A stretch of DNA of 64,000 nt, from contig CAVYTA010000001.1 of the NCBI GenBank assembly GCA_963771355.1, positions 1-64,000 of the forward strand, given 5' to 3'. The DNA comes from an uncultured Candidatus Rokubacteria bacterium (GTDB lineage: Bacteria; Methylomirabilota; Methylomirabilia; Rokubacteriales; CSP1-6). Made by a program: the position numbers and the translations under genes. Under the pieces are notes generated by a model. That model was not told the DNA's origin. It saw nothing but the letters and a program-made list of their open reading frames with translations, and did no database searches. Positions 3,001 to 20,601 of this stretch are shown here, one piece after another; positions within the stretch are counted from its first letter, which is position 1; the number at the start of each line of letters is the position of its first letter.

Positions 3001-3265
3001 TCTGGAAGAGGTTCAGCGGGAACTGCACCTGCACGCTCGCCTCCGCTTCCGCGAAGGCGTTGCCCCGCACCGTGGCCGCCACGAACTGCGCCAGCCCCGC
3101 GTCGGCCTGCGCCAGCGCCGAGATGCCGATGGTGACGTTGACGCCGCGCTTGAACTCCGCCTGGGCGGTGAAGTCCAGGGCGGTGCGCGCGCTCGCGGAG
3201 GCCCAGTCGTTCTTGGCCGCCGCGCCGGCGCCGAGCAGGGGCTGGTTGAGATTGATCCCAGGCAT
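1..3265 (-). CDS. Large hypothetical protein (>1,080 codons, runs off left edge), split by several frameshifts
   Basis: Coding-like pieces join across frames: ORF 1097..3265 N-terminal part, ORF 1351..2133, ORF 241..1086, then a further frame reading LFRDAVNTLGGLDDALSQ...TPKQIAVLSPAPGSVHGG...AFILLNGDLVPP. Ala/Gly-rich N-terminus, helical middle. Confidence 0.7.
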
Positions 3266-3300: not shown

Positions 3301-6300
3301 CTACCCCTCGGCGTACTCCACGAGCCGACAGAGCGCGTTGACCAGCTCCATCTCCTCGATCGAGGCGCAGCGCGCCTCCAGGAGGCGGGGCGAGCAGACC
3401 AGCAGGGCCAGGCACTGCGCGCGGGAGATGGCCACGTTCAGCCGGTTACGGGAGAAGAGGAAGGTCAGGTTGCGGGGCACGTCCTGCCCGCTCGACGTGG
3501 CCATGGAGAAGAAGACGATCGGCGCCTCCTGCCCCTGGAACTTGTCGACGGTGCCGACGCGCACGCCGGTCGGGAGGCCGGCGCGGAGGCGGTGGACCTG
3601 GGCATTGTAGGGCGCGACGACCATGAAGTCCGTCGGGCGAAGCGGGCGCGTCGTGCCGTCGTGCTCGGTGAAGGCCCCGCCGAGCATCCGCCCGATCTCG
3701 CTCGCGATCCGGGCGACCTCCTCGTCGGAAGCGTTACGATTGCCCTCGTGGTCGACCGGCAGATACCGGATGCCCGTCCCGAAGGCCGTCGTGCGGCGCG
3801 CGGCGGACTCGTGCGATCGGAGGCGGCCGTCGTAGACGATCTCCGAGATGAAGGCGCAGACATCGGGATGCATCCGGAAGCTGCGCTCGAGGAAGAGCCC
3901 GCGGTCCTCCGGGACCGTGGGCGAGGTCCCGAGGAGATGCTCGAGCACGGACACCCCGGTGCCCTCCGGGTGGACGCCCTGCGAGACCTGGGCGAGCTGG
4001 AGGGGATCGCCCAGGAGGATCACGTTCCGCGCCGAGGTGCCCACGGCGAGCGCGTCCGCGAGCGAGACCTGTCCGGCCTCGTCGACGACGAGGTGATCGA
4101 GCTGCCCATCCAGCTCGGGCCGCGCGAAGAGCCAGGCCGTGCCGGCGAGGAGCTGGATCTTCGGGCCGGCGCGGACAACTTTCGAGACGTCCGGCTCGTT
4201 CGTGATGAACCGCCCGCGGTACTCGGACTCGGGGTTGTCGCCGGACGACTTCTTGAGCCCTCGGAAGACGACCCCCTCGGCCTGCGCGACGCGCTCGACC
4301 TCCTCCAGCAGGTTGTGGATGACCTTGTGGCTCTGGGCGCTGATCCCCACGCGCCGCTTGTTCGCCAGGAGGTGCACGATGAGGCGCGCGCCGGTCCACG
4401 TCTTGCCCGAGCCGGGCGGGCCCTGCACGAACAGGTGGCCGCCGTCGAGCCGAAGGGCCAGCGCCTTCATCGCGTCGAGATCCGGGGTCTGGATCCGCGC
4501 GCCCGGCGGCATCCCCTGGAAGCGTGGGTGCGCTCGGCCCAGGATGGCCTGCAGCGCTCGGTAGCGATCATCGCCGGCCAGGACCGCCCTGGCGACCCTC
4601 AGCACCGCGCCACTCTGCTGCCGATCGTCGTAGGGCCCACCGGGAATCAGGGCGCGGGGCAGTGAAACCGCGGCGAGGCTCGGGCCGCGCTTGAGGCGAA
4701 GCGTCCTCGCGACGTCGTCGATCTCGAGAATCTCGCCCGCTCGCTGACCCGTCGCCGGATCCATGACCGTTCCGCGCCCGAGCTTGTGGTCCTGCGGCGG
4801 GAACCTGAGGGTGTGGATTCGTGACTTGGCCTCCGCCACGGGCGGGCGGCCCGGGTCGGGCTCGAGCTCGCCGATCGACTCGAAGTCCTCGACGAGCTCC
4901 TCCGGGGACATCCCGACGCGCTCGAAGAACCACCACCACGCCGGCCGGGCCTCGCGCCGGTGGTACTCCAGCAGCTCGCCGGCCAGCCAGCGCGCCGACC
5001 CGGGCTCGGCGCCGGCCAGGAGTGCCTCACGGAGCCGGTGCCGCTCTTCCTGCGCCTCGACGGTCTCCTCGGACGGAGTGCTCAGCTCGGGCGGAGCCGG
5101 CCACGCGAGCTCCGCGGGCCGCACGCGGTGCAGCCACTCCAGGAGCGCCCGCGTCGCCCGGCAGTCCTCCTCGTTGTAGGCCGCGATCCTGGCCAGGTGC
5201 TCCCCGTCACTCGTCTCGCGCCACGCCTCGTACTCGACGATCGCGTCCGCGCCGGACCGGACCGCCGCCTTCCGGAAGAATCCGCCGAGGACCTCGAGCT
5301 CCTTGAGGGAATAGCTGGACACGCCCGCCCGCAGGGCCTGGCGGAAGACGGTGAGCAGATCGACGAAGATCCGGCGGCGGAGCAGATCGTCCACTTCGTC
5401 CTCTCGGGTGCCGTGCTCGCTCATGAGCCGCTTGATCGCGCTCGGCTCGTAGGAGCCGAAGTGGTAGACGTGCAGATCCGGATCGGCCGCGAGCCGCGCG
5501 CGGACCAGGTCGATGAAGGCCTCGAGCGCCCGCCGCTCCCCCGCGCGATCGTGGGCCCAGATGGCCTGGTACCGGGACTCGGCTCCGTCGTCCGTCAGGA
5601 CGCCGAACAGGAACTCGAGGCCCCGCGCGGGCTCGAAGAACGGGTGGCCCTCGAAGTCCAGGAAGACATCGCCGGGCGAGCGCGGGGGCAGCGCCGCCAG
5701 CCCGCGCCCGGTCTCGGTGGGCCGCGCGTGCCACTCGATCGTGCCGGAGCGCCGGCTGCGGAGCTGGAGGGCGGCCTGCTCGTGCAGCCCCTGCAAGGTG
5801 GCGGCGGGAATCTTCGGGATCCGGGGCGTGGGCTGCGCGTTGGCGAGCGCGGCCAGCGAGGAGATCCCGGCGCCCAGCAGCCGTTCGATCTGGTCCCGCC
5901 GGATGTTGGCCACGCGGGTCAGGTGATCGTCGCGCTCCCAGCCCTCCTCGCAGACCGCATGGAAATTACAGAGCAGGCAGTGATCGCACGGATACGCCGT
6001 GGTCGTCGGGCGGCCGTCCACGGCGGCCTCCAGCCGGCGCCGGACGCGGCGGAAGTAGGCGGAGACATTCGCGAGCCGGATGGCGACGCGCTCGCTGGTG
6101 CCGAGCATGACGTACGCGAGCTCGGGCGTGAGCCCCTGGATCTCCGCGACCGCCTGACTGTAGAAGCAGAGCTGGAGCGCGTGCTCCGGCCGCGGGTGCC
6201 GGGCCAGCTTCGTGTCCAGCACCTCGTAGCTCCACGCGCCCAGCGCGGAGGGTTTCTCCACGCGCTCCAGGAAGTCCGCGACCCCGCGCCAGCGCTGCGA

Positions 6301-6621
6301 GACGAGCACCGCCTGGTAGATGTAGGCCGCGCCGGCCTCCATCGCGCGCCGGGTGGCCTCGGCTCCCGCGGCGAAGTCCGGCGGCGCGCCCAGCCCGATC
6401 TCGACCACCTCCGAGCCCGCGTCGCGCAGCGCGGCGAGATAGCGCGCCTCGTGCTCCTTGCCCTTGCGCTGGATGAGCTCGGCGAAGGCGTCGCGGGAGA
6501 AGGGCCTCGGCCGCTCCCCGAGCGCGGCGGCGAGGGAGAGCTGGGTCAGGTGATCGCAGGCGACGAACTCCGTCAGGTCGGTGGGGGAGAAGAGGATTGG
6601 ACCGTCGGCGTGGCGAATCAT
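3301..6621 (-). CDS. TM0106-family RecB-like nuclease fused to RNase H-like domain and SF1 (DNA2/UPF1-like) helicase
   Basis: 1106 aa. PD-(D/E)xK-like GVADFL...EVLDTKLA...QLCFY; Cys cluster CDHCLLC...C; FLDFEG...YSLKELE...YNEEDC; helicase motifs QGPPGSGKT, VVDEAGQ, GDPLQL, APYNAQV, TVDKFQGQE, RLNVAISRA. Confidence 0.92.
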   Translation of the reverse strand: MIRHADGPILFSPTDLTEFVACDHLTQLSLAAALGERPRPFSRDAFAELIQRKGKEHEARYLAALRDAGSEVVEIGLGAPPDFAAGAEATRRAMEAGAAYIYQAVLVSQRWRGVADFLERVEKPSALGAWSYEVLDTKLARHPRPEHALQLCFYSQAVAEIQGLTPELAYVMLGTSERVAIRLANVSAYFRRVRRRLEAAVDGRPTTTAYPCDHCLLCNFHAVCEEGWERDDHLTRVANIRRDQIERLLGAGISSLAALANAQPTPRIPKIPAATLQGLHEQAALQLRSRRSGTIEWHARPTETGRGLAALPPRSPGDVFLDFEGHPFFEPARGLEFLFGVLTDDGAESRYQAIWAHDRAGERRALEAFIDLVRARLAADPDLHVYHFGSYEPSAIKRLMSEHGTREDEVDDLLRRRIFVDLLTVFRQALRAGVSSYSLKELEVLGGFFRKAAVRSGADAIVEYEAWRETSDGEHLARIAAYNEEDCRATRALLEWLHRVRPAELAWPAPPELSTPSEETVEAQEERHRLREALLAGAEPGSARWLAGELLEYHRREARPAWWWFFERVGMSPEELVEDFESIGELEPDPGRPPVAEAKSRIHTLRFPPQDHKLGRGTVMDPATGQRAGEILEIDDVARTLRLKRGPSLAAVSLPRALIPGGPYDDRQQSGAVLRVARAVLAGDDRYRALQAILGRAHPRFQGMPPGARIQTPDLDAMKALALRLDGGHLFVQGPPGSGKTWTGARLIVHLLANKRRVGISAQSHKVIHNLLEEVERVAQAEGVVFRGLKKSSGDNPESEYRGRFITNEPDVSKVVRAGPKIQLLAGTAWLFARPELDGQLDHLVVDEAGQVSLADALAVGTSARNVILLGDPLQLAQVSQGVHPEGTGVSVLEHLLGTSPTVPEDRGLFLERSFRMHPDVCAFISEIVYDGRLRSHESAARRTTAFGTGIRYLPVDHEGNRNASDEEVARIASEIGRMLGGAFTEHDGTTRPLRPTDFMVVAPYNAQVHRLRAGLPTGVRVGTVDKFQGQEAPIVFFSMATSSGQDVPRNLTFLFSRNRLNVAISRAQCLALLVCSPRLLEARCASIEEMELVNALCRLVEYAEG

Positions 6622-6696
6622 GGGATCAGATCCCCCGGCTCATGCATCTCCATGATGTCACGGCTTGGAGACGTGCAGATCGGCTAGGATACGACC

Positions 6697-6895
6697 GTGC
6701 GTGCCTGGGTGGCCGTCACCGATAAGGACTGGTACCGGTTCCTCAGCCAGCGGCCGCACCTCGACGAGGTGAACTTCTGGCAGCCGGGCGGCAGCCGCGT
6801 CTTCGGCGCGCTGTCCCCGGGCGAACCGTTCCTTTTCAAGCTGCACCATCCGGACAATGCCATCGTCGGGGGCGGATTCTTCACGCACGCGTCTC
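6697..6895 (+). pseudogene. N-terminal fragment of HNH-type putative restriction endonuclease
   Basis: MRAWVAVTDKDWYRFL...DEVNFWQPGG...PGEPFLFKLH...IVGGGFF resembles the N-terminal domain of a widespread HNH endonuclease family. Similarity stops after ~66 codons and no HNH domain follows. Confidence 0.7.
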
Positions 6896-6976
6896 CTCCA
6901 CTCGAGGATAGCGGTGAGAAGGGGAGCCGCTGCCGGCCGCCCCAGGAGCCACTGCCGCAGCGTAGATACGAAGGAT

Positions 6977-7438
6977 TCAGCCAGTTTGATCTGAAGCGCG
7001 AATCCCCCCAAACTCCGAGACTAGTTCGTCGTCATACTTGTCGGCATAGCCAGCGACACGATCTATCAGCCGAACAAACTCATCTTCGTCTAGGTTGAGT
7101 GCAAGTCGTTCTCCAAGAACATTCACAGTAGCACCCTCGAGCGAGAAGCACGCGCCAAAGAGCGCGGACGCGTTCAGCTCTAGCAACTTCCTATATAGCG
7201 GAAGGAGGTTTTTGTCGGGCAATTCCATCACAGGCGCCAGTACCTGAAAGACAACTGAATCTGGGTTGCCGTCTGCTTTGATGACAGAGACAAACACGTC
7301 CGCAGAGCCTACCGTGAGCCTCCACGTCGCACAGACGTCGTCAGCGTGGGCGGGTTCGGTATCCTGGACCCCGAGTCGCTTCAACGCTGATACGACGTTC
7401 TTTTTAGCGTCATCGAAGTTATTGCTGAAAAACCCCAA
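6977..7438 (-). CDS. YbjN / type III secretion chaperone-like domain protein
   Basis: W.L..GSA.V, APVMELP....LPLYRKLLELN, LD.DEF...I.RVA.YADKYDDEL..EFG. Likely TTG start at 7438 after GGAG. Visibly AT-richer than flanks. Confidence 0.75.
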   Translation of the reverse strand: MGFFSNNFDDAKKNVVSALKRLGVQDTEPAHADDVCATWRLTVGSADVFVSVIKADGNPDSVVFQVLAPVMELPDKNLLPLYRKLLELNASALFGACFSLEGATVNVLGERLALNLDEDEFVRLIDRVAGYADKYDDELVSEFGGIRASDQTG

Positions 7439-7491
7439 ACTAAGTCTCCCCCATTTGCAGGAAGGGCTAACCCGCTGTGAGCTACTTGACC

Positions 7492-7625
7492 TCAGCACTG
7501 GCGATTCGTCACGACGAGGCCGCGTGGGTCAACGATGAAGCCTGAACCGCAACCTGTTGGCAGATAGACCCGACGACAGAAGACTGAACCTGGGCGACAA
7601 TGTCTGCGAAACTCAGGACGCCATC
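7492..7625 (-). pseudogene. Internal fragment of HtrA/trypsin-like (S1C) serine protease
   Basis: Reads SFADIVAQVQSSVV then, in another frame, GCGSGFIVDPRGLVVTNRQC*. This matches the GSGFI...G.(I/V)VTN.HV motif and ends where the catalytic His would be. Confidence 0.65.
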
Positions 7626-7747
7626 TCCACCACGAGGGCGCGGACCTGTAGCAGGTGCGCGGCGGCGGGTGCAGTGGCGGTCCAGCCGGTGAGCACCGTG
7701 AGCGCGAGGGTGGCTCCAGTCATGATACGAGCAATCCCCTTCTGCAT
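7613..7747 (-). pseudogene. 5' fragment of a secreted protein (signal peptide only), divergent from an AraC promoter copy
   Basis: MQKGIARIMTGATLALTVLTGWTATAPAAAHLLQV with an RBS-like GAGG/AGGA upstream. Runs into the HtrA fragment. Confidence 0.5.
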
Positions 7748-7781
7748 TCCTTTGCCTCGTGCGTTTCGTGGAGCTTGGGAT

Positions 7782-7888
7782 CCAGTATCCTAGGGACCGA
7801 GTGGGGCCGTCTCGACATCTAGCGCCATTCTCTTGACACTTGGGTACGCACGGTACCGAGCGCATGTGCACGGCTCCGACGATCTCTC
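7782..7888 (+). repeat. Left arm of 107-bp inverted repeat (AraC promoter plus first codons, MCTAPTIS)
   Basis: Matches the reverse complement of 9469..9575 at 99/107 positions by manual alignment. Confidence 0.9.
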
Positions 7889-7895
7889 CCCCTGA

Positions 7896-8432
7896 CCTAC
7901 CTGAGGCGTCGTGCTGCCGTACATCACGCGTGACGAGGCCCAGCGCCCGTCGCTCTTCGGCCCGAGCCTGGAGGAGGCACTCGGCCCTGGGCTTGTCCTG
8001 ACCAGCGAGGACCTGGATGCCGAGGTGCTCCTGAACCGGTTGCGTCGCCTGATTCCGGCCCAGGGGCGAGCACTGGGGCCGCTGGACGCGGATCAGGTCG
8101 ATGAGATCCGGAGCGTGCTTCATCCGGAAGTCCGCATCGGGTGGGGCGCCACGAGCGATGAGATCGTCCGGGTGATGGACCGCGAGCAGGAACGTCTTGC
8201 GCGGACGTTAGGGGACGGCCACCGGTTGCTCCGGGGGGTTGCGGGAAGCGGGAAGACTATCGTCCTGGTCTGTCGGGTTCGATATCTGCGGGCCCGGCAT
8301 CCAGACTGGCGGGTTCTCGTGCTCTGCTTCAACCGCGTGCTGGCGGATGCCTTCCGGGCCGCCATTGCTGATGACCAAGTCGAGGTGTCGACCTTTCACG
8401 CCTGGTGCACCCGGCAGCTCAAAGCAGCCGGC
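7896..8432 (+). pseudogene. Internal fragment of UvrD-like SF1 helicase (copy 1)
   Basis: VMDREQERLARTLGDGHRLLRGVAGSGKT (Walker A), VLCFNRVLA, VSTFHAW. No N-terminus and no Walker B or later motifs. Confidence 0.75.
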
Positions 8433-8486
8433 GCTGCAGGCGGGCTCCGGGCAGGTCGACCGCGGGGAATGCGGGCTCGGCTCGAA

Positions 8487-9493
8487 TCAGCGCCGACCCC
8501 GGTACTCCGAGGGCGTTGCGCCCGTCCACCGCCGGAACGCGCGGTTGAAGGCGCTGACTTCCGAATAGCCGAGGAGACAGGCGACCTCGGTAAGGGTGTG
8601 CTTGCGGTCTCGCAGATAGCTGAGGGAGAAGCGCCGGCGTGTGTCGTCGACCAGGCGCTTGAAGTCGAGCCCCTCCTCCCGCAGACGTCGCTGCAGCGTG
8701 CGCCGGCTCATCGCCAGCTTCCGGGCGACCCTCAGGAGGTCCGGGGCGCCGTCCCGCAGTGATTCCCCGACCGCCCGTCGCACCGCGGCGAGGAGGCCGT
8801 CTTCGCGCGGCGCCTCCAGCAGCGCGCGTCGAGATATCGCTTCAGGATCGGGTAGAGCCGCTCGTCGGCGGCCGGCACCGGCCGGTCAGCGAACTCCCGC
8901 TCGATGACGAACGCGTTCATGGCGGCGCCGAAGGCGACCGGGGCCGCGAACACCCGGGCGTGCTCGGCCGGATCGCGCGGGGCGGGATGCGCGAACTGGA
9001 CCTCAGCGGGGGCCCACTGGCTTCCCGCCATGAGGCGCAAGACGTTCCGCGCCACCGCCAGGCTGTACTCGTTGTGCTGGCGGAGCGCGGCAATGGAAGG
9101 GTCGGTGACCTCGTGTCGGAAGTACGCCCACGCACCCTCGACAGCGAAGGACGTGCGGGCTCCCTCGTTGTGAACGCTGAGATAGCGGGCAATGTTCTCG
9201 AAGGCCGTCCCGAAGGTGGGCGAGTTCAGCGCCAGGTAGGTCAGGGGGCCCACGTTCTTCGGGTTGTAGCGCTCGCCGAAGTGCAGCCCGAAGCACGCGT
9301 CGCCGGTTGCCTCCGCCGCCGCCTCGAGGAGGCGGGCGAAGGTCGCGAAGGCGATGACCCCGTGCGGGTCGCTGACGTCGCGCCGACGAAGCCCGAGGGA
9401 GCGCAGGACCTGATCGGGGTCGCCACCTTTCGCCGCGATTGCGTCGATCAGGCCAGTCGCCGCGGACAGAGAGATCGTCGGAGCCGTGCGCAT
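8487..9493 (-). CDS. AraC-family transcriptional regulator, copy 1 (1-bp frameshift at ~8829)
   Basis: N-terminal ligand domain plus HTH (MSRRTLQRRL...LGYSEVSAFNRAFRRWTGATPSEYR). One base missing relative to copy 2. Confidence 0.85.
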
Positions 9494-9575
9494 GCGCTCT
9501 GTACCGTGCGTACCCAAGTGTCAAGAGAATGGCGCGAGATGTCAAGACAGCCCCGCTCGGTCCCTGGGATAGTGG
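9469..9575 (-). repeat. Right arm of 107-bp inverted repeat (native AraC promoter/5' end)
   Basis: See 7782..7888. Confidence 0.9.
9519..9547. promoter_or_regulatory. Putative AraC operator: TGTCAAGA direct repeats with 21-bp period (TTGACA on minus strand)
   Basis: TGTCAAGA at 9519 and 9540, also at 11936 and 11957. The 21-bp period is typical of AraC tandem half-sites. Confidence 0.55.
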
Positions 9576-9892
9576 TTCACAGTTTTCACAAACGCAGGAG
9601 GCAAGGAACGCCCCTAGGCGGCTGTCGCCTAGGGAAGACGATGTGAGTCTCGAGACGTGCCTGGTTGGCAGCATGTGGGCCACTGCAGAATTCAAGCTAC
9701 CGCTCGAGTTTGCCGCAGCCCCGAACAACCTGCCAAGAGAAGCTGCTCATGGACCGGTGCGCGTGGGACACGACTGCTTAGGCAGACTACCCGCGCGGGA
9801 ACATCGAAGGCTGATCGAACGGGGCGATGCGCGGCGGAATCAAAGTCGACTGTTCTGCTGCGAATCCACGCGCTCCGGAGATCTTGTGCCGC

Positions 9893-10165
9893 CCTGGGAG
9901 CCGGTGATGTGGGCGCGCTGGGCGCGGAGGTGCTCGCCGGTCTGGGCGCACCGGGCGACGGGCGCGAGAGGAGATAGCGCATGCGGAGAGATGCGGCGAG
10001 GTGGTTAAGGAGCTGAGCTTACAGTGTTGCGTATGGTGGGTGGTGACTTCTTCATGTGCGCAGGACGTGGAAGATATGGCCTGGCGCTGGTTTTCGCGGA
10101 TAAGGAGGGTCTGCGGTGGAAGTGGTGGGTGGCGGCAACAACCTCCTCGTGCGCGATGCGGGGTG
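9893..10165 (+). pseudogene. Degraded copy of murC 3' end and murB 5' end
   Basis: Deletion-rich version of 12332..12620, ending in a 23-nt G run (10165-10187). Confidence 0.75.
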
Positions 10166-10311
10166 GGGGGGGGGGGGGGGGGGGGGGAGCTTGGGATCCA
10201 GAATCCTAGGGACAGAGGGGAGCCGTCTCGACATCTCACGCCATTCTCTTGACACTGGGTTGCGCACGGTACCGAGCGCATGTGCACGCCTCCGACGATC
10301 TCTCCCCCTGA

Positions 10312-10848
10312 CCTACCTGAGGCGTCGTGCTGCCGTACATCACGCGTGACGAGGCCCAGCGCCCGTCGCTCTTCGGCCTGAGCCTGGAGGAGGCACTCGG
10401 CCCTGGGCTTGTCCTGACCAGCGAGGACCTGGATGCCGAGGTGCTCCTGAACCGGTTGCGTCGCCTGATTCCGGCCCAGGGGCGAGCACGGGGGCCGCTG
10501 GACGCGGATCAGGTCGATGAGATCCGGAGCGTGCTTCATCCGGAAGTCCGCATCGGGTGGGGCGCCACGAGCGATGAGATCGTCCGGGTGATGGACCGCG
10601 AGCAGGAACGTCTTGCGCGGACGTTAGGGGACGGCCACCGGTTGCTCCGGGGGGTTGCGGGAAGCGGGAAGACTATCGTCCTGGTCTGTCGGGTTCGATA
10701 TCTGCGGGCCCGGCATCCAGACTGGCGGGTTCTCGTGCTCTGCTTCAACCGCGTGCTGGCGGATGCCTTCCGGGCCGCCATTGCTGATGACCAAGTCGAG
10801 GTGTCGACCTTTCACGCCTGGTGCACCCGGCAGCTCAAAGCAGCCGGC
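10312..10848 (+). pseudogene. Internal fragment of UvrD-like SF1 helicase (copy 2)
   Basis: Same as 7896..8432 with 2 substitutions. Confidence 0.75.
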
Positions 10849-10902
10849 GCTGCAGGCGGGCTCCGGGCAGGTCGACCGCGGGGAATGCGGGCTCGGCTCG
10901 AA

Positions 10903-11910
10903 TCAGCGCCGACCCCGGTACTCCGAGGGCGTTGCGCCCGTCCACCGCCGGAAGGCGCGGTTGAAGGCGCTGACTTCCGAATAGCCGAGGAGACAGGCGA
11001 CCTCGGTAAGGGTGTGCTTGCGGTCTCGCAGATAGCTGAGGGAGAAGCGCCGGCGTGTATCGTCGACCAGGCGCTTGAAATCGAGCCCCTCCTCCCGCAG
11101 CCGTCGCTGCAGCGTGCGCCGGCTCATCGCCAGTTTCCGGGCAACCCGCAGGAGGTCCGGGGCGCCGTCCCGCAGTGATTCCCCGACCGCCCGTCGCACC
11201 GCGGCGAGGAGGCCGTCTTCGCGCGGCGCCTCCAGCAGCGCGCGCTCGAGATATCGCTTCAGGATCGGGTAGAGCCGCTCGTCGGCGGCCGGCACCGGCC
11301 GGTCAGCGAACTCCCGCTCGATGACGAACGCGTTCATGGCGGCGCCGAAGGCGACCGGGGCCGCGAACACCCGGACGTGCTCGGCCGGATCGCGCGGGGC
11401 GGGATGCGCGAACTGGACCTCAGCGGGGGCCCACTGGCTTCCCGCCATGAGGCGCAAGACGTTCCGCGCCACCGCCAGGCTGTACTCGTTGTGCTGGCGG
11501 AGCGCGGCAATGGAAGGGTCGGTGACCTCGTGTCGGAAGTACGCCCGCGCACCCTCGACAGCGAAGGACGTACGGGCTCCCTCGTTGTGAACGCTGAGAT
11601 AGCGGGCAATGTTCTCGAAGGCCGTCCCGAAGGTGGGCGAGTTCAGCGCCAGGTAGGTCACGGCGCCCACGTTCTTCGGGTTGTAGCGCTCGCCGAAGTG
11701 CAGCCCGAAGCACGCGTCGCCGGTTGCCTCCGCCGCCGCCTCGAGGAGGCGGGCGAAGGTCGCGCAGGCGATGACCCCGTGCGGGTCGCCGACGTCGCGC
11801 CGACGAAGCCCGAGGGAGCGCAGGACCTGATCGGGGTCGCCACCTTTCGCCGCGATTGCGTCGATCAGGCCAGTCGCCGCGGACAGAGAGATCGTCGGAG
11901 CCGTGCGCAT
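10903..11910 (-). CDS. AraC-family transcriptional regulator, copy 2 (intact, ~335 aa)
   Basis: Uninterrupted ORF from MRTAPTISL with C-terminal double HTH. Confidence 0.92.
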   Translation of the reverse strand: MRTAPTISLSAATGLIDAIAAKGGDPDQVLRSLGLRRRDVGDPHGVIACATFARLLEAAAEATGDACFGLHFGERYNPKNVGAVTYLALNSPTFGTAFENIARYLSVHNEGARTSFAVEGARAYFRHEVTDPSIAALRQHNEYSLAVARNVLRLMAGSQWAPAEVQFAHPAPRDPAEHVRVFAAPVAFGAAMNAFVIEREFADRPVPAADERLYPILKRYLERALLEAPREDGLLAAVRRAVGESLRDGAPDLLRVARKLAMSRRTLQRRLREEGLDFKRLVDDTRRRFSLSYLRDRKHTLTEVACLLGYSEVSAFNRAFRRWTGATPSEYRGRR

Positions 11911-12330
11911 GCGCTCTGTACCGTGCGTACCCAAGTGTCAAGAGAATGGCGCGAGATGTCAAGACAGCCCCGCTCGGTCCCTGGGATAGTGGTTCACAGT
12001 TTTCACAAACGCAGGAGGCAAGGAACGCCCCTAGGCGGCTGTCGCCTAGGGAAGACGATGTGAGTCTCGAGACGTGCCTGGTTGGCAGCATGTGGGCCAC
12101 TGCAGAATTCAAGCTACCGCTCGAGTTTGCCGCAGCCCCGAACAACCTGCCAAGAGAAGCTGCTCATGGACCGGTGCGCGTGGGACACGACTGCTTAGGC
12201 AGACTACCCGCGCGGGAACATCGAAGGCTGATCCGAACCGATTCGGGCGTCGCGTGCGGCCGTGGACATCCAGCAGAAGTCGATTGAGCTTCATGCAACG
12301 ATTGACCACTTGCTCTCAGACACTATGAGA

Positions 12331-12417
12331 ACCCTGGGAGCCGGTGATGTGGGCGCGCTGGGCGCGGAGGTGCTCGCCGGTCTGGGCGCACCGGGCGACC
12401 GGCGCGAGAGGAGATAA
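12331..12417 (+). pseudogene. murC: 3' remnant of murC
   Basis: TLGAGDVGALGAEVL matches the MurC C-terminal (L)TLGAGD(I/V) motif, immediately upstream of murB as in dcw clusters. Confidence 0.7.
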
Positions 12418-12420
12418 CGC

Positions 12421-13302
12421 ATGCTCGGAGAGATCCGCGGCGAGGTGCGTTTCAAGGAGCCCCTGAGCTTCCACACGTCCTTGCGCATCGGCGGGCCGGC
12501 CGACTTCTTCATCGTGCCGCAGGACGTGGAAGACATCCGCCTGGCGCTGGCCTTCGCGGACAAGGAGGGCCTGCCCGTGGAAGTGGTGGGCGGCGGCAAC
12601 AACCTCCTCGTCCGCGATCGCGGCATCCGCGGCGTGGTGCTGAAGCTCGAGGGCTGCCTGGGACGCGCCGAGTTCCACGGCGAGGAGGCGGTGGCGGGCG
12701 CGGGGGTGAGCCTGTCCGCCCTCATCCGCGAGGCGGCCGCGCTGAACCTGGGAGGGCTCGAGTGCCTGGTCGGCATCCCCGCCACCATCGGCGGCGCGGT
12801 GGCGATGAACGCGGGCACGCTGGACGGCGGCATCGGCGACTTCGTCTCGGCCGTCTACTTCCTCCACCCCGACGGCGCCCTCGGCGAGTACAAGCCCGGG
12901 GCGGGAGCCTACGGGTACCGTTCCTTCGCCGCGCCGCCCGGCGCGGTGCTCATCGGCGCGCGGCTGCGCCTGCAGCGGCGGCCCTACGCCGAGATCCAGC
13001 GCGACATCAAGCTGCGGCTCAAGCAGAAGAAGTCCACCCAGCCGCTGGCGCTGGCCTCGGTGGGCTGTGTATGGAAGAACCCGTCCGGCGAGACCGCCTC
13101 GAGGATGATCGAGAAGGTCGGGCTCAAGGGCAAGCGGCTCAACGGGGCCGAGATCTCGGCCAAGCACGCCAACTTCATCGTCAACCGAGGGGGCGCCATG
13201 GGCGCGGACATCATGGCCCTCATGGAGCTCACCCGCGAACGGGTGCGGAACCACTTCGGGATCCGGCTCGAGCCCGAGATCCGCGTGCTCGGCGAGGGGT
13301 AG
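12421..13302 (+). CDS. murB: UDP-N-acetylenolpyruvoylglucosamine reductase
   Basis: HTSLRIGGPAD, GGGNNLLV.D, GIPATIGGAVAMNAG, QP...SVGCVWKNP, SAKHANFIVN, LEPEI. Confidence 0.95.
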   Translation: MLGEIRGEVRFKEPLSFHTSLRIGGPADFFIVPQDVEDIRLALAFADKEGLPVEVVGGGNNLLVRDRGIRGVVLKLEGCLGRAEFHGEEAVAGAGVSLSALIREAAALNLGGLECLVGIPATIGGAVAMNAGTLDGGIGDFVSAVYFLHPDGALGEYKPGAGAYGYRSFAAPPGAVLIGARLRLQRRPYAEIQRDIKLRLKQKKSTQPLALASVGCVWKNPSGETASRMIEKVGLKGKRLNGAEISAKHANFIVNRGGAMGADIMALMELTRERVRNHFGIRLEPEIRVLGEG

Positions 13303-13313
13303 GAGCGCACGCC

Positions 13314-13712
13314 ATGGGCCGTCTCTCCGTGCTGTCGCCGCGCCGTCTCGACCGCGAGCTCGAGGACTGGGGCGGGCGCCGCGCGCTCGGTCGGGCATCA
13401 GCGCGTCGACCGCCGGCCGGCGCGTCGGTCCCGGCGCGGACGCGCCGCCTGGCCCCGGTGGGGCTTGGCCGGCCGGGTCGATGCTCGCGGCTGTCGGCGG
13501 CGGCGGGCACCCTGGGCGCGCCGCTGAGCTCGACCTCGCCGCGCTTCGCGGTGGCCGAGCGCTGGAGGTGCGGCGGCGCCAGCCGGCTCTGCCTTGCCGA
13601 GGAGATCATCGCCGCCTCCGGCATCCGAGCGCGGGCGTGAACCTCTGCGGCTCGATCCTGGCCGCGAGGTGGTAGCGCGGGTGGAGGCGCTGATCGCGGT
13701 GCGGCGCGCCGC
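13314..13712 (+). pseudogene. ftsQ: 5' fragment of ftsQ/divIB (frameshifted, truncated after POTRA region)
   Basis: Follows murB. Pieces SPRFAVAE..GASRL..EEIIAASGI..GVNL..LDP..VVARVEAL..VRRA resemble the FtsQ POTRA domain. Confidence 0.6.
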
Positions 13713-13721
13713 CACTGCGCG

Positions 13722-13807
13722 GAGCAGACCAGCAGGGCCAGGCACTGCGCGCGGGAGATGGCGACGTTCAGCCGGTTGCGCGAGAAGAAGAAGGTCAGGT
13801 TGCGGGG
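13722..13807 (-). repeat. 86-bp fragment homologous to the 3' end of the TM0106 gene (3392..3477)
   Basis: Direct repeat, 82/86 identical. Encodes PRNLTFFFSRNRLNVAISRAQCLALLVCS. Confidence 0.9.
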
Positions 13808-13827
13808 GCTTCTATCGCCCCAAGTGG

Positions 13828-14091
13828 CTACGACGCCTTACGCCTGACCTCGGCCTTCCGCAGGTCCCACGTCATCTGCAGGTTCATCCAGAGCTCCGGA
13901 GACGTTCCGAGCGCCTCCGCCAGATCGAGAGCGGAATCGGCGGTCACGCCCCGCTTGCCCCTCACCAGCTCGTTCAGCTTGGCCTTCGTCCAATCGAGCT
14001 TCTCCGCGAACTCGCGCTGGCTCATGCCTCTGGGCCGAAGGAACTCCTCGAGGAGCATTTCCCCAGGGTGGATTGGCTTGCGCGGCTTCAT
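13828..14091 (-). CDS. higA: HigA-family antitoxin
   Basis: PIHPGEMLLEEFL.P..MSQ...A...LNELVRGKRGVTADSAL.LA..LGTSPELWMNLQ..WDL. Confidence 0.93.
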   Translation of the reverse strand: MKPRKPIHPGEMLLEEFLRPRGMSQREFAEKLDWTKAKLNELVRGKRGVTADSALDLAEALGTSPELWMNLQMTWDLRKAEVRRKAS

Positions 14092-14103
14092 TTCGTTCCC
14101 TCC

Positions 14104-14115
14104 CTAGTGGTAGTC
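14104..14115 (-). pseudogene. Last codons (DYH*) of a deleted higB toxin
   Basis: GAC TAC CAC TAG 12 bp upstream of the higA start. DYH* is the typical HigB C-terminus. Confidence 0.6.
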
Positions 14116-14339
14116 TCATCGAATCCACGATCTGGATCAACACGGCCCACCCCGCATACCGCCGGGCGGTGGCGTCACGCTCGGAGGGCTATCACGTCGC
14201 GGTCACCGCGGCCCTGGCGCTGGCCCCGCTCGCCGTGGAGCCGGCTGCAGAGAGCGCTTTCGTCACCGCGTTCCTCGGTAGCTGGGGCGCCGCCCTCGAT
14301 CGGGCTGCCCGCCGCTCGCGGCGCTGTCCGCGCGGGTGA
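14115..14339 (+). pseudogene. 3' fragment of an unidentified gene
   Basis: Coding-like frame LIESTIWINTAHPAYRRAVASRSEGYH...AFVTAFLGSWG...* with no start, beginning exactly at the higB break. Confidence 0.5.
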
Positions 14340-14385
14340 GGGGAGGGGCGCCTCCGCGCTCAGCCGTCCCGACGCTTTCCGCCAC

Positions 14386-14433
14386 GTTCCTGGACATCGA
14401 GAGCGGGCAGGCGAGGTTCGGCGTGCGCTACAG
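14386..14433 (+). repeat. 48-bp fragment homologous to caspase gene 22288..22335
   Basis: 44/48 identical direct repeat. Confidence 0.8.
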
Positions 14434-14461
14434 GCAGGGGACTAGGTTGATCATCCGCCGC

Positions 14462-14499
14462 TTGACAGAATGTCCTAAATGAACGTAATGTACATTACG
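14462..14499 (+). promoter_or_regulatory. TA operon promoter (TTGACA) with perfect 16-bp palindromic operator CGTAATGTACATTACG
   Basis: TTGACA at 14462-14467. Palindrome 14484-14499 has the TGTACA core seen in YefM/Axe operators. Confidence 0.75.
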
Positions 14500-14551
14500 A
14501 CAGGTCCAGCTGGGTGGAAGCCGTGACGTAAGGCGGCGGGAGGCGTCACGG

Positions 14552-14806
14552 ATGGTCAGAATCGAGGCAACGAAAGCCCGGAGCGAGTTCTCGGAGCTCC
14601 TGAGCACGGTGAAGTACGGTTCAACCCGCGTGCTCATCGAGCGTCGGGGCAAGGATATGGCCGCGCTGGTCCCGGTCGAGGATCTCCGTCTGCTCGAGCT
14701 ACTCGAGGACGAGCTCGATCTCGAGGCCGCTCGAAAGGCTCTCTCGGACCCGAAGAACAAGGTGCGGTTGCCCCTGGCCGCCGTGAAGAAGCGCCTGGGG
14801 CTGTAA
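14552..14806 (+). CDS. Phd/YefM-family antitoxin
   Basis: ATKARSEFSELL..V......V.IERRGK..AALVPVEDL. Confidence 0.9.
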   Translation: MVRIEATKARSEFSELLSTVKYGSTRVLIERRGKDMAALVPVEDLRLLELLEDELDLEAARKALSDPKNKVRLPLAAVKKRLGL

Positions 14807-14815
14807 TCCTCCCGC

Positions 14816-15124
14816 GTGATGTACACGGTCGAGTTCCTCAAGACAGCCGCGGAGGAACTGGCGGGGCTGCCGAAGGACGCGCAGCGCCTGATCATGAAGC
14901 GGGTCGACGGGCTCCAGGCGGACCCCCGCCCGTCGGGTGTCGAGCAGCTGAAAGGCGCGGAGAAGTTCCTCCGGCTCCGCGTGGGGGACTATCGCGTCAT
15001 CTACTCGGTAGAGGCCAGGCAGATCGTGGTCCTCGTCGTCCGGATCGCCCACCGGAAGGCCGTGTACGAGAACCTGAAAGTGCTCGCCAGTCGGGTATCC
15101 GGCTGGAGGCAACGCAAGAAGTAG
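14816..15124 (+). CDS. relE: RelE/ParE-family toxin
   Basis: YTVEF...A..EL..LP.....I...VD.L..DPRPSG...LKG....RLRVGDYRVIY......VLVVRIAHRK.VY. Confidence 0.9.
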   Translation: MMYTVEFLKTAAEELAGLPKDAQRLIMKRVDGLQADPRPSGVEQLKGAEKFLRLRVGDYRVIYSVEARQIVVLVVRIAHRKAVYENLKVLASRVSGWRQRKK

Positions 15125-17490: not shown

Positions 17491-20400
17491 TCATGTCGGT
17501 CGTCGAGCGAGCGCGGCCTGGGCCTCGTCGACCCAGCCGGTGGCGCCGATCTCTTCGAACATCGCCCGCGCCCGCTCGATCAGGGCCTGACCCTCGACAT
17601 GATCGTCGTGCAGCTTGAACTGACCGTACGCGAGAAGCGTCTGGCCCAGCTCGGGCCGGGAGCGGATGCCTTCCAGGATCCCCAGGCTCTCGCGGAAGGC
17701 CGTGTCCGCCTGGCCTCGATTGCCCGTCGCCGCGTAGGCCTGCCCGAGCACCCGGTGCGCGGCGCCCTGCTCAAGGCGAAAGCGGCTGCGGTCGGCGTAG
17801 TCGAGCGCCTTGCGCGCGGTCTCCAGGGCGGCCTCGGTCTCACCCCCGGCGAGGCGTGTCAGAGCGGCCGCGGTGGTCAGGTAAGTCAGGGAGTAGGGTG
17901 TCGAGTCTCGACTCGCCTCCCATTGCTCGATGGCTCGGTCGATGACGCGGCGGGCCTCGGCGAGCCTGCCCACCTTGAGGTAGGCGAGGCCGAGCCATGC
18001 CGAGCCGAAAAGGATCACGTTGATTTCGCCGATCTGCCACGCGATGGGCAGGCTCTCCTCCGCGACGCGGATGACGTCGTTCCAGGCGCCTTGATAGACA
18101 TAAGGCTCGGCCTCCATCGCCCGCCAGGCCAGAAGCCGAGCGTCACCCAGATCGGCGGCGATCTCGCGGAACTCGCGCGCGTACCGCAACGAATCGGTGA
18201 GCAGGCCGGCCCGCGCAGAGTAGCACCGACCTCCGCGGTTGATGGTCATGGCGTGCTGAACACGATCGCCCTGGTCCGCGTAGATAGCGATGGAGCGGCC
18301 ATACTGGGTAAGGGCCTCGTCCCAGCGCCCGCTGAAACCCAGATAGGCTCCGTAGCGTTCCCTGACGAAGGCATGGGTGAGGGGGTCACCGCAGCTCTCG
18401 GCTCGAACCAGCGCCTCCTTCAGGAGCTCCTCGCTCCTGACGATGAACCCTTTCAGCGCCTGTACCCTCGCCAGGCTCGCCACGTCTCCCCGATCGGCCG
18501 TGCTCTGGAGAGCGCGATCGAGGTTCTGGACGGCCAGCTGCACCATCGTCTCGTCGCGCGCAAAGCCGGGTAGCTGCACCAGGGCCTCGGTCACGTCCGC
18601 ATGCTGCCGCTGCCGATCCTCGGTCCGCGGGAGACGATCGAAGAGTTCGAGGGCCCTCCAGTAGTGACCGCTCGCCGCGGGACGATCGTAGAGCCCTCGC
18701 GCTCGCCCGGCGGCCGCGAGCGTGTGCTCGAGGGCCTTGTCCCACTCGGCGGCGTGATACCAATGGTGGGCCACCAAGGCCGCCTGCTCGGCCGCGCCGT
18801 TAGCGAGTGTGGACTCGAGGTGGCGGGCGACCCGGCCGTGAAGATCGCGACGCTGCTCGGCCAGCAAGCTTGCCTCGGCCGCTTCCTGCGTCAACGCGTG
18901 CTTGAAGATGTACTGGCGCTCGGGTGGGGCGGCAAACTCTCGGATCAGCTCCGCGCGGAGCAGATGGGCCAAGGCGCGGTCCAGCTCTGCTGGCTCGTCG
19001 CTGAGGGCGCGCAGGGTGCGGTACCCGAAGAATCGGCCGATCACCGCGGCGTGCTGGAGTAGCGCCTTGGTCGGGGCGGGCAGCCGATCGATGCGCGCGC
19101 CGATCATCCCGCGAAGCGTGGTCGGGATCGTCCACTGCTCCGGGCTGCCGGCGGCTGTCCAGCGATCACCGTCGCGCCGGAGCACGCCTTCCTCGATCAG
19201 CCCACGGAGGATCTCCTCGAGGAAAAGCGGATTTCCCTCCGCGCGCGCGAGGATCCGCTCGCGGATCGCCTCGGGAAGGTCGGAGACGCGCAACAGGTGG
19301 TCGGTCAATCGCTCGCTGTCCTCGACGGCGAGCGGAGCCAGCCGCAGCTCGGTCAGGCGGTGCCCGAAATTACGCTCGGCATGGAGGCGGAACGTCCAGG
19401 CATCCCCCTCAGTATCTGGGCGGCTCGTCACCAGGATCATGAGCGGCTGGAAGTCGGTGAGCTCGAGTAGCAGGGTCAGGAGGTCGACCGAGGCTGGATC
19501 GGCCCAGTGCAGGTCTTCGACCGCGACGATCACCGGACCCCGCTCCGCGAGTCCCTGGAGCAGCGCGCGGAGTAGCCAGGACGAGCTGGGACTGGAGCGC
19601 CCGCGGGTCGCTGGGCATGGCCTGAGCCTGACCCGGGCCGAGGTCGATTCCAAGCAGGTGAGCCAAGGCCCCCTGGCTCTGCGCGACCTCGGAGCCGCCG
19701 AGTGCCCGGCCCGCCGCTCGGAGCTTGGTCCGGGCGATGGCCGCCGCCTCCGTGGGTCCGAGCCCCAGTGCGCCCCGGAGAATCTGGATGATCGGCGCGT
19801 AGCTCGTGCTCTGAGTATAGGACTGACAGCGTCCCTCGAACCAGCGGAGGCCCTCGGGAAGGTTCTCGTGCAGCTCGATCTTCAGGCGAGACTTCCCGAT
19901 CCCGGCCTCGCCCACATGGAGACCACTGGCCGCGGCCGCGCCGCAGGACCTCCAGGCAGGCCGAGAGCGCGGCCAGCTCGCGGTCCCGGCCCACGATGGG
20001 GGATGACAGGCCGGTGACGCCCATGTGGCGGCGCTCGCCGCGGCGAAGCTCCAGGGCTCGGTATGCGGTGATCGGAGCTGGAGAAGCCCTTCAGCGAGAG
20101 CGCCTCGAGACGCTCCGCCTCCAGGTGCGGGGCCAGAAGGCGATGAGTGGTCTCGCTGACGGTGATGCCGTCGCCAACGGATTGTAGGCGCGCTGCCAGG
20201 TTCGGCACCTCGCCCGTCACCATGAACTCGTTCACGGCGCGGCTGGCGGCGACCGCTTCCCCTGTGGCGATGCCGATTCGAAGGACGAGTCGCGCCCCGT
20301 ACTCCTGCTCGAACATGGGGTTGAGCTGAGCCAGGCTCTCTTGCATGGCGAAGGCGGCGCGCACAGCGCGCTCGGCGTCGTCCTCGTTGACCCGCGGCAC

Positions 20401-20601
20401 CCCGAAGACGGCCATGACGGCGTCGCCGGCGAACTTCTCGACGGTACCGCCGAAGGCCTCGATCTGCTGACGCATCTCGTCGAAGAAGGCCGACAGAAGC
20501 GCGCGGAGTTGCTCGGGGTCATGTTGGGTGGCGAGCTCTGCCGAGCCCTTGAGGTCGGCGAACAGAACGGTGACCGGCTTGCGCTCGTCCGTGGCGGCCA
20601 T
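17491..20601 (-). CDS. Class III adenylate/guanylate cyclase - AAA ATPase - TPR protein (frameshifts near 20070, 19915, 19575)
   Basis: TVLFADLKGS, EKFAGDAVMAVFG, NLAARLQ; IVGRDREL, GEAGIGKSRL, VEDLHWAD, EGNPLFLEE, YIFKHALTQE; TPR-like helical tail. Confidence 0.88.

Follow-up and report, generated by a model that had tools for sequence, protein, structure and literature searches.

The window, a stretch of 64,000 nucleotides from one contig of an uncultured Candidatus Rokubacteria bacterium, carries an intact gene of the TM0106 family and, beside it, 8428 bases (6697-15124) occupied largely by gene fragments in both orientations. The features, with strand in parentheses where one applies, are as follows.

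3301..6621 (-): intact TM0106-family gene, 1106 aa (TIGR03491, 290 bits against a cut-off of 97; also Pfam matches), with a PD-(D/E)XK/Cas4-like nuclease, an RNase H-like domain and an SF1 helicase
6697..6893 (+): what is left, about 66 codons at the 5' end, of an HNH-type endonuclease gene, 79% identical in DNA to a 306-aa gene of genome G129, which matches PADLOC HNH
6894..6976: short scrap, whose 39-bp core also occurs in G006, with weaker copies on contig C7 of this assembly
6977..7498 (-): YbjN-like gene (PF22551, PF10722), start codon uncertain
7509..7747 (-): frameshifted secreted-protease-like remnant (signal peptide and HtrA-like motifs), recognized by six-frame reading, no Pfam match
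7744..7904 (+): divergent promoter of araC and an araC start with an internal deletion (codons 1-9 run into 83-87), matching 9469-9611 in inverted orientation at 88%
7905..8433 (+): part of the interior of a NERD-UvrD helicase gene (PF00580), with 67-74% identity to the full genes of relatives
8478..9610 (-): first copy of araC and its promoter, with a one-base frameshift near 8828
9611..9815: hairpin and scrap, copy 1, the same as 12028-12232
9823..10187 (+): connector, a likely artefact (blended murC end, C-depleted murB start, 23 G)
10186..12232: apparent second haplotype of 7770-9815 (26 substitutions and 1 gap in 2047), with an intact araC at 10903-11910
12233..12330: scrap adjoining the murC tail, on an X13 contig (12013-12360), with variants in X6 and X20
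12331..13374 (+): murC 3' end (29 codons), complete murB (12421-13302; Pfam MurB) and ftsQ start, corresponding to C7:665274-666317
13375..13721 (+): stretch resembling ftsQ but for 10 substitutions and 28 gaps; its product (P0082) forms a one-member cluster
13722..13807 (-): orphan TM0106 3' piece, 5 substitutions in 86 bp relative to the full gene
13828..14115 (-): higA antitoxin gene (TIGR02607; 88% to the metagenome locus L030), the gene upstream of it being reduced to its last codons
14115..14343 (+): 3' end of a GHKL-type HATPase gene, matching the terminal part of the 541-aa gene of L030 at 86% and G020 at 77%
14344..14433 (+): 3' piece of a caspase-domain gene, 90% to 22285-22335
14552..15124 (+): intact toxin-antitoxin pair (antitoxin Phd/YefM, toxin RelE/ParE)

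The sequence-only reading had described this region as a mosaic of unrelated pieces, and most of its identifications (the HNH N-terminus, YbjN, UvrD piece, araC, TM0106 3' piece, higA, caspase piece and toxin-antitoxin pair) agree with the sequence and profile matches; what it called an orphan 3' gene end is the terminal part of the HATPase gene. Two labels need revision. The signal peptide and the "HtrA motif", counted as separate scraps, are both present but read as parts of one frameshifted pseudogene, presumably HtrA-like, with which the first araC promoter is divergently paired. The murC'-murB-'ftsQ scrap is also present, but its murB is complete. Three scraps are, as had been proposed, diverged homologues of nearby DNA: the TM0106 piece (87%), the caspase piece (90%) and the araC promoter (88%, inverted). 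For 423 windows of 5 kb on four contigs the 1st percentile of the coding fraction is 0.36, and 6650-11650 falls below it, at 0.30. The stretch with the YbjN-like gene is lower in GC (0.586 for 7001-8000) and is covered by contigs of X2 and X13. Scans for Rfam families and promoters gave no matches. By eye, an 11-bp inverted match was noticed between 6962 and 15143.

The pieces are in the main truly adjacent. Contigs from public soil runs (labelled X; 8 of 24 listed runs compared, from four studies) bridge 12 of the 15 joints checked, among the pieces listed, where a bridge covers at least 31 letters on both sides of the joint; with study P1, which may be where the assembly came from, left out, 8 of the 15 are still bridged, again among the pieces listed. 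Bridged joints include those of the HNH remnant (X2), the NERD-UvrD piece (X13, X7), the orphan TM0106 3' piece with higA (X5) and the caspase piece (X5, X6). The remaining three are the joint of murC' at 12331, over which contigs of X13 and X6 reach by 30 letters, one short of the rule, and two stretches that are suspect on other grounds.

The first of these, 9823-10187, lies within a tandem repeat of 2.4 kb (7770-10161 and 10186-12623), missed earlier, whose second copy accounts for 2416 of the 8428 bases. It is the connector between the copies and differs from murB almost exclusively by loss or change of C (which accounts for 15 of the 16 substitutions and for 20 of the 22 bases deleted), and the run of 23 G that closes it is the longest homopolymer in the assembly. 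Since the connector is a copy of murB losing mainly C bases and ending in 23 G, the repeat is likely two strain haplotypes pasted together. At 95% likeness, depth over 9963-10133 is 0 in four of four runs, though such contigs speak to presence and not to absence. The second suspect stretch, 13375-13709, is likely a consensus blend that hides the true right joint of the murB block. Errors of this kind, with concatenated haplotypes and false direct repeats, have been described for long-read assemblers (bioRxiv 10.1101/2025.04.22.649783), and the likeness extends to variants joined as a long direct repeat by a junk connector. They would account for 9823-12232 (one extra copy) and 13375-13721, however, and not for the other joints.

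Might the whole mosaic be a chimeric assembly of strain variants, present on no chromosome? Two stretches do bear clear artefact signatures, the ends of C4 and C7 show a comparable imperfect overlap of 3.2 kb, and no single contig among those compared, all from short-read runs, spans the region. But the bridged joints come from four studies, and TM0106, AraC, truncated FtsQ and the 44-aa signal-peptide ORF of the protease-like remnant can all be found on further long contigs whose lengths agree. The chimeric reading is largely refuted, joint by joint, and for the region as a whole it is scarcely credible. Of the mosaic as first described, the juxtaposition of pieces is mostly real, and some of the complexity is likely assembly error.

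How did the pieces come to abut? The sequence-only reading proposed that the site repeatedly takes up short DNA from related genomes, each scrap being a separate capture. Longer forms of two joints survive elsewhere. In L030, higA and a full HATPase gene lie 3.7 kb apart, and by comparison with that locus an X14 contig continues into HATPase at 14115. Likewise, P0003 retains AraC 1-87 on the same UvrD joint at which the window keeps about 14 codons. Strains have also lost or exchanged further parts of the island: 7474-7676 is deleted in X7, 8231-8433 is replaced in X5, X2 and X6, and 14879-15093, inside the toxin-antitoxin pair, is deleted in X2, while the scrap at 12233-12330 has variants that diverge at 12233 and 12247. 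In all, deletion or replacement variants occur in X2, X5, X6, X7 and X20, besides variants of the truncated FtsQ; the exact HigA protein is found on 11 contigs. Because longer, uncollapsed forms exist for two joints and strains show further deletions, most scraps are better read as leftovers of deletion than as single short captures. What is supported of the proposal is a mosaic that varies among strains, the derivation of several scraps from related but non-identical alleles, and uptake of at least one block; the idea that each scrap was captured separately is not supported.

The remnants trace to full-length accessory genes in islands of relatives: NERD-UvrD lies near TM0106 in G079, G141, G146 and G162, and HATPase in G020 and G045. 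For three scraps, comparisons with the genome, relatives and plasmids gave no donor. A scan of genome contigs with YbjN found four distant loci at 28-42%, none of them a donor, and a viral scan returned nothing. The scrap at 12028-12330 had no plasmid match, no longer protein relative among 39 candidates and one weak match, probably due to chance, in 1 of 182 other genomes. A metagenome scan gave two loci, of which only L030 was useful, in a search that may leave out records very near this genome. Six-frame tblastn of the scraps was swamped by compositional matches and was set aside.

The murB block stands apart. Over the 1044 bp from 12331 to 13374 it matches the chromosomal locus on C7 with 0 differences, and the genome's 16 repeat pairs include, tuf aside, no other core operon repeated in near-identical form. 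Core genes are uncommon as island cargo. In other assemblies the truncated FtsQ ends at codon 32 in 11 sequences, a cut that matches the loose end in X5 and X6, and at codon 141 on two long contigs (48,875 and 122,089 bp); the window's right joint matches neither. The lengths 48,875 and 122,089 bp are also those of TM0106-bearing contigs (the latter with AraC as well), from which we infer, on the basis of equal lengths, that the block sits at the same island in those assemblies. Contigs of 197,306, 19,920 and 341,475 bp likewise carry a near-identical TM0106. The tail after ftsQ codon 32 is foreign and absent from this genome, and nothing in the genome or the loci matched the peptide tails convincingly. 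Four other candidates for truncated FtsQ (P0078, P0079, P0081 and P0097) were rejected as single sequences attributable to frameshift or chimera or otherwise unclear. A MurB search of 183 genomes gave one match in five of the seven genomes of the same genus and none in two. A literature search on murB in islands, which covered few subscription papers, matched only work on Frankia murC.

Judged from the sequence, the murC'-murB-ftsQ' block is likely chromosomal DNA acquired in one uptake, with no site motif at its joint. Perhaps instead a mobile element moved it, by imprecise excision after integrating at the murC 3' end or by one-ended transposition, and the element's own genes were later deleted. 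The left end at 12331 is constant in the window, X13 and X6 while the right ends vary; the araC module (copy 1 is 98% identical) is also found on C6, inside an integrase islet of 4.65 kb that has direct repeats of 16 bp; and transposases lie in or beside TM0106 in G006 and G099. A fixed left end and variable right ends are, however, equally expected from a single uptake followed by deletion, and the ORFs scanned in 6697-15124 include no remnant of a transposase or integrase, an absence noted earlier and upheld here. Nor does the window hold a tRNA or, at up to two mismatches, the C6 islet repeat; it begins at the contig end, so that a far-left att site would fall outside it. Movement by an element seems unlikely.

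Among 21 joints there is no shared motif, again as first noted, and overlaps of about 1-2 bases are seen at the few joints with both donors known. Integron cassettes share with this region the presence of toxin-antitoxin genes, but they are whole genes in one orientation, and no integron integrase was found among the ORFs scanned here, nor an attC-like motif in the joint comparison and the Rfam scan. Acquisition of CRISPR spacers by Cas1-Cas2-Cas4 resembles it only in the weak Cas4-like domain of TM0106: PF01867 (Cas1) has no match in this 99.8% complete genome, no repeat-spacer array lies in the region, and the inserts have no fixed size. Decayed variable (defence) islands come closer, with their restriction-like nucleases, helicases, toxin-antitoxin pairs, pseudogene remnants, strain deletions and low coding density; this locus differs in having no integrase, tRNA or att site and in carrying an intact, identical second murB.

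A further parallel is offered by the immunity arrays of V. cholerae's T6SS (type VI secretion system) and by orphan Rhs 3' ends, which PMC5361080 attributes to homology-facilitated illegitimate recombination and C-terminal displacement. In that scheme a homologous anchor combined with a motif-free joint leaves behind strings of orphan 3' gene ends, and the orphan 3' ends of TM0106, with their scattered breakpoints, fit it; but what is displaced in the arrays is immunity genes that are functional and share one orientation, whereas the pieces here have no relation to one another, lie in both orientations and are for the most part dead. TM0106 occurs in 50 of the 183 genomes of the order, and in seven of those 50, from four genera, an orphan 3' end lies in mid-contig (G165 and G024, at contig ends, were left out). 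The 5' breaks of these ends are scattered, from about codon 1000 to 1082, and the ends lie downstream of the full gene in G141, G146, G162 and G174 but upstream in the window. No 5' orphan was seen among the four candidates scored per genome, the 5' part being less conserved. Orphan 3' ends might be commoner than simple decay predicts, and by analogy their recurrence looks like C-terminal displacement.

Does the TM0106 enzyme itself process DNA ends and help short pieces to be captured next to the gene that encodes it, as the sequence-only reading ventured? Weak Cas4 matches on the N-terminal domain (below cut-off), the orphan 3' ends in four genera and the one core-gene block acquired here might be so explained. 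At 22 of 26 orthologue loci, however, the upstream coding fraction is at least 0.59, often with defence or toxin-antitoxin genes, and two genomes of the same genus, G001 and G004, share intact metabolic genes upstream of TM0106; the ordinary neighbourhoods in relatives that the sequence-only reading had named as grounds for rejecting the link are largely what is seen. The genome lacks Cas1, the region lacks an integrase, repeats or a junction motif, the breaks of the orphan ends vary, and the longer intermediates make deletion evident. The proposed role is thus not upheld, and we regard it as highly improbable. Only a little less so is the broader notion that TM0106 genes are capture platforms across the order, resecting incoming or broken DNA and offering their own conserved 3' region as anchor, so that foreign and even core chromosomal DNA (a whole murB in this case) would be taken up repeatedly, with the orphan 3' ends as the trace. 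A literature search on TM0106 and TIGR03491, which covered few subscription papers, returned for TM0106 only unrelated papers on corrosion and for TIGR03491 nothing.

The explanation we consider probable is a strain-variable island beside TM0106, eroded by nested deletion and rearranged by the host's recombination, with uptake of the murB block and assembly errors superimposed. The island would once have held full-length cargo: an HNH nuclease, NERD-UvrD, a HATPase, toxin-antitoxin pairs and the araC module. DNA from related strains would recombine at an anchor held in common, be it a TM0106 allele, araC or flanking genes, its other end being joined by a motif-free illegitimate joint, and such recombination could displace pieces, for example TM0106 3' ends. 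Deletions would then strip unselected cargo until unrelated ends abutted. This order of events we infer, and the route of uptake was presumably transformation. The genome carries genes of the competence (ComEC-type) and DprA families, but because both occur in 10 of 14 control genomes, they are no sign of active transformation.

Enzyme-promoted uptake, if true, would amount to a route of DNA acquisition free of Cas1; nothing here shows that. The locus is a caution that haplotypes can be pasted together at such sites even in a long-read genome that is near-complete. It also offers a well-documented case of island erosion, since intermediates survive in a soil population that is widespread. Two features merit attention: the orphan 3' ends that recur for TM0106, an uncharacterised family, and the intact, population-wide second murB, whose variably truncated ftsQ makes it possible to test whether selection keeps a core gene once captured.

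The mosaic of gene scraps at 6697..15124, beside the intact nuclease-helicase gene TM0106 (3301..6621, minus strand), is unusual for the genome that carries it (5.5 Mb in 8 contigs, 70% GC, 99.8% complete). The window covers the opening 64 kb of its contig C1. Judged with a simple purpose-made ORF caller, ORFs of at least 100 aa occupy 0.30 of 6650-11650, against a median of 0.91 and a first percentile of 0.36 (423 windows on four contigs). The gene pieces listed by the sequence-only reading are all there, including one that we take to be from HtrA and a C-terminal motif presumably of HigB, but the list overlooked that 7770-10161 is repeated at 10186-12623. What that reading called an orphan 3' gene end proves to be the last part of a HATPase gene, and murB, which it placed in a chain of fragments, is complete.

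Near-identical DNA is found in 20 of 24 listed public sequencing runs (8 studies, with soil and rhizosphere predominating), and 8 of the public runs were compared with the window as assembled contigs, not reads. If a joint between unrelated scraps is considered bridged when at least 31 letters on either side lie within a single contig, then at least 12 of 15 joints are bridged among the pieces listed, and at least 8 still are when P1, a study that may be the source of the assembly, is set aside.

Joints of the mosaic bridged within single contigs of public runs (X numbers)
6621/6697: X7
6893: X2
6977: X2, X13
7474-7510: X2
7888-7904: X13
8433-8478: X7, X1
12027: X1
12233-12247: X13
13807-13829: X5
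14115: X1
14343-14383: X5, X6
14433: X5, X1

At the murC' joint (12331), 30 letters cross in X13 and X6, against the 31 of the rule, a crossing that looks like an overlap at a graph branch. The other two joints, both in stretches suspected of being artefacts, have no bridging contig among the pieces listed for the 8 runs. The bridged joints are real.

The suspect stretches themselves, the connector of the repeat and 13375-13709, are very probably artefacts. Over 2047 bp, 26 substitutions and 1 gap separate the two versions of 7770-9815, the level expected of strain alleles, and the link between the repeat copies consists of a damaged murC end and murB start. Within 9892-10161, 15 of the 16 bases substituted are C, as are 20 of the 22 lost, and the C-depleted connector closes with 23 G, the longest homopolymer of the assembly. 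Because of this strain-level divergence, the C-biased damage and the run of G, the 2.4-kb repeat is likely to be a false join of two haplotypes. The assembler errors described in bioRxiv 10.1101/2025.04.22.649783 include the concatenation of subpopulation variants and false direct repeats. Against chromosomal ftsQ, the second stretch has 10 substitutions and 28 gaps, although it directly follows 1044 bp without a difference, and its product forms a one-member protein cluster, hence it is likely a consensus blend. Elsewhere, the end of contig C4 and the start of C7 overlap by 3.2 kb at 95%, and an adenylate-cyclase/TPR gene is broken at 17491-20601, which suggests that the assembly has more errors of haplotype or consensus, or that there is decay.

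The murB block, in contrast to a simple misjoin, is probably something more. Its sequence from 12331 to 13374 is identical to the locus on C7, where murC-murB-ftsQ-ftsA-ftsZ runs intact, and it is the sole core-operon repeat besides tuf among 16 repeat pairs (at least 150 bp, at least 94%). MurB has one match each in 5 of 7 same-genus genomes. Contigs of X5 and X6 leave ftsQ, which encodes an essential protein, at 13410 and continue into foreign DNA; when short FtsQ products were sought, one of 60 aa turned up with exactly this break, and its cluster comprises 11 sequences (ENA and Logan). One of these lies on a 3832-bp contig, and a full MurB lies on a contig of equal size. In two further FtsQ products the break falls after codon 141, and their contigs measure 48,875 and 122,089 bp, sizes that recur for contigs with TM0106 and, for the second, with AraC. 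From the equal sizes we infer that truncated FtsQ is co-located with MurB, TM0106 or AraC. The breaks in X5 and X6, the 11-sequence cluster and the codon-141 products make it likely that the species carries a second murC'-murB-ftsQ' copy with a single left end and several right ends, and there is good reason to regard the block as real uptake. At 12325-12417, the murC' joint gives an in-frame ATG ahead of the last 29 murC codons, immediately 5' of murB, possibly by chance; the exact peptide is absent from the protein collection searched.

The other scraps have longer forms. On a JGI contig (L030), higA (88%) and the HATPase gene end (86%), which abut directly at 14115 in the window, are separated by 3.7 kb holding a 634-aa gene and the remainder of the HATPase gene. 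In the protein P0003, whose UvrD joint is that of the window, AraC 1-87 is present, and the window retains only codons 1-9 and 83-87, a nested deletion. Strains vary as well: X7 lacks 7474-7676, X2 lacks 14879-15093, and 8231-8433 is exchanged for other sequence in X5, X2 and X6 (part of this comparison was run at 90% likeness). Near TM0106, four relatives (G079, G141, G146, G162) have full-length NERD-UvrD and two (G020, G045) full-length HATPase with TA genes. The scraps are 87-94% like nearby genes, and the 21 joints compared share only chance 8-9-mers, in agreement with the earlier view that there is no junction motif. The longer forms, the strain deletions, the full-length cargo of relatives and the motif-free joints point to a defence-type cargo island collapsing by deletion and refreshed by alleles from relatives. 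Cargo would be lost until unrelated ends abut, and alleles from related strains would replenish what erodes; erosion is likely the main source of scraps. Uptake by a homology anchor plus an illegitimate joint during transformation is plausible, and ComEC and DprA are present in the genome.

In the wider window, 13829-49117 has the same gene blocks as the relatives' loci L030, L032 and L037 but in different order, a zone of gene-block shuffling. A 4.65-kb islet between 16-bp direct repeats (L035, G000:C6:2726307-2730959) contains a tyrosine integrase, an HTH gene and an araC that shares 98% identity with those of the window; this small integrative element may mobilise the araC module. A 310-aa transposase-like gene, presumably of the IS110 family, occurs as a near-identical pair (G000:C6:2705378-2706625 and C8:62078-63339).

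The proposal that TM0106 (here an intact TIGR03491 member) captures DNA enzymatically now seems very unlikely. Cas4 requires Cas1 for integration, and Cas1 was not found in the 99.8% complete source genome. Among 183 genomes from the order, 50 have TM0106. The 27 loci examined were those with the best matches and on long contigs, and 26 of them offered sufficient upstream DNA (one of the 26, in G171, is a partial gene). Upstream of TM0106, the place to look for variable fragment arrays in relatives, the coding fraction is at least 0.59 in 22 of the 26; among the four low loci are one from a frameshift-rich assembly and one with several short TA genes in a row. The neighbours are defence, TA or IS genes in G006, G020, G027, G034, G045, G050, G079, G099, G118, G127 and G163, and ordinary metabolic genes in G001, G004, G013, G064, G088, G106, G169 and G174. 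WYL-domain regulators lie directly upstream of TM0106 in G127 and G163 (L113, L114) and near it in G079 (L099). A same-genus orthologue is interrupted by an IS21-type element (L026, G006:C19:253000-272900). Downstream of TM0106 in the window, 241-3265 holds two large ORFs, one of 281 aa and one of up to 722 aa; the portions scanned matched neither Pfam nor NCBIfam. The literature searched yielded no relevant prior work on TM0106 or TIGR03491.

A role for the locus is not to be dismissed flatly, since short orphan TM0106 3' ends occur mid-contig in 7 of the 50 genomes (G000, G043, G136, G141, G146, G162, G174), a count made for TM0106 alone. The seven span 4 genera, four of them in one genus, and the 5' breaks fall from about codon 1000 to 1082. 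The ends in the six other genomes lie at L095, L096, L097, L107, L126, L128 and L129; G141 has several, adjoining NERD-UvrD, DUF222 or TA genes. They resemble the anchor-driven C-terminal displacement proposed for T6SS and Rhs arrays (PMC5361080). Such displacement would need the TM0106 gene as a homology anchor only, not its enzyme.

In sum, the mosaic is likely one more of the decaying variable islands already known, here enlarged by assembly error. What merits pursuit is its spare murB copy, together with the orphan 3' ends of TM0106.
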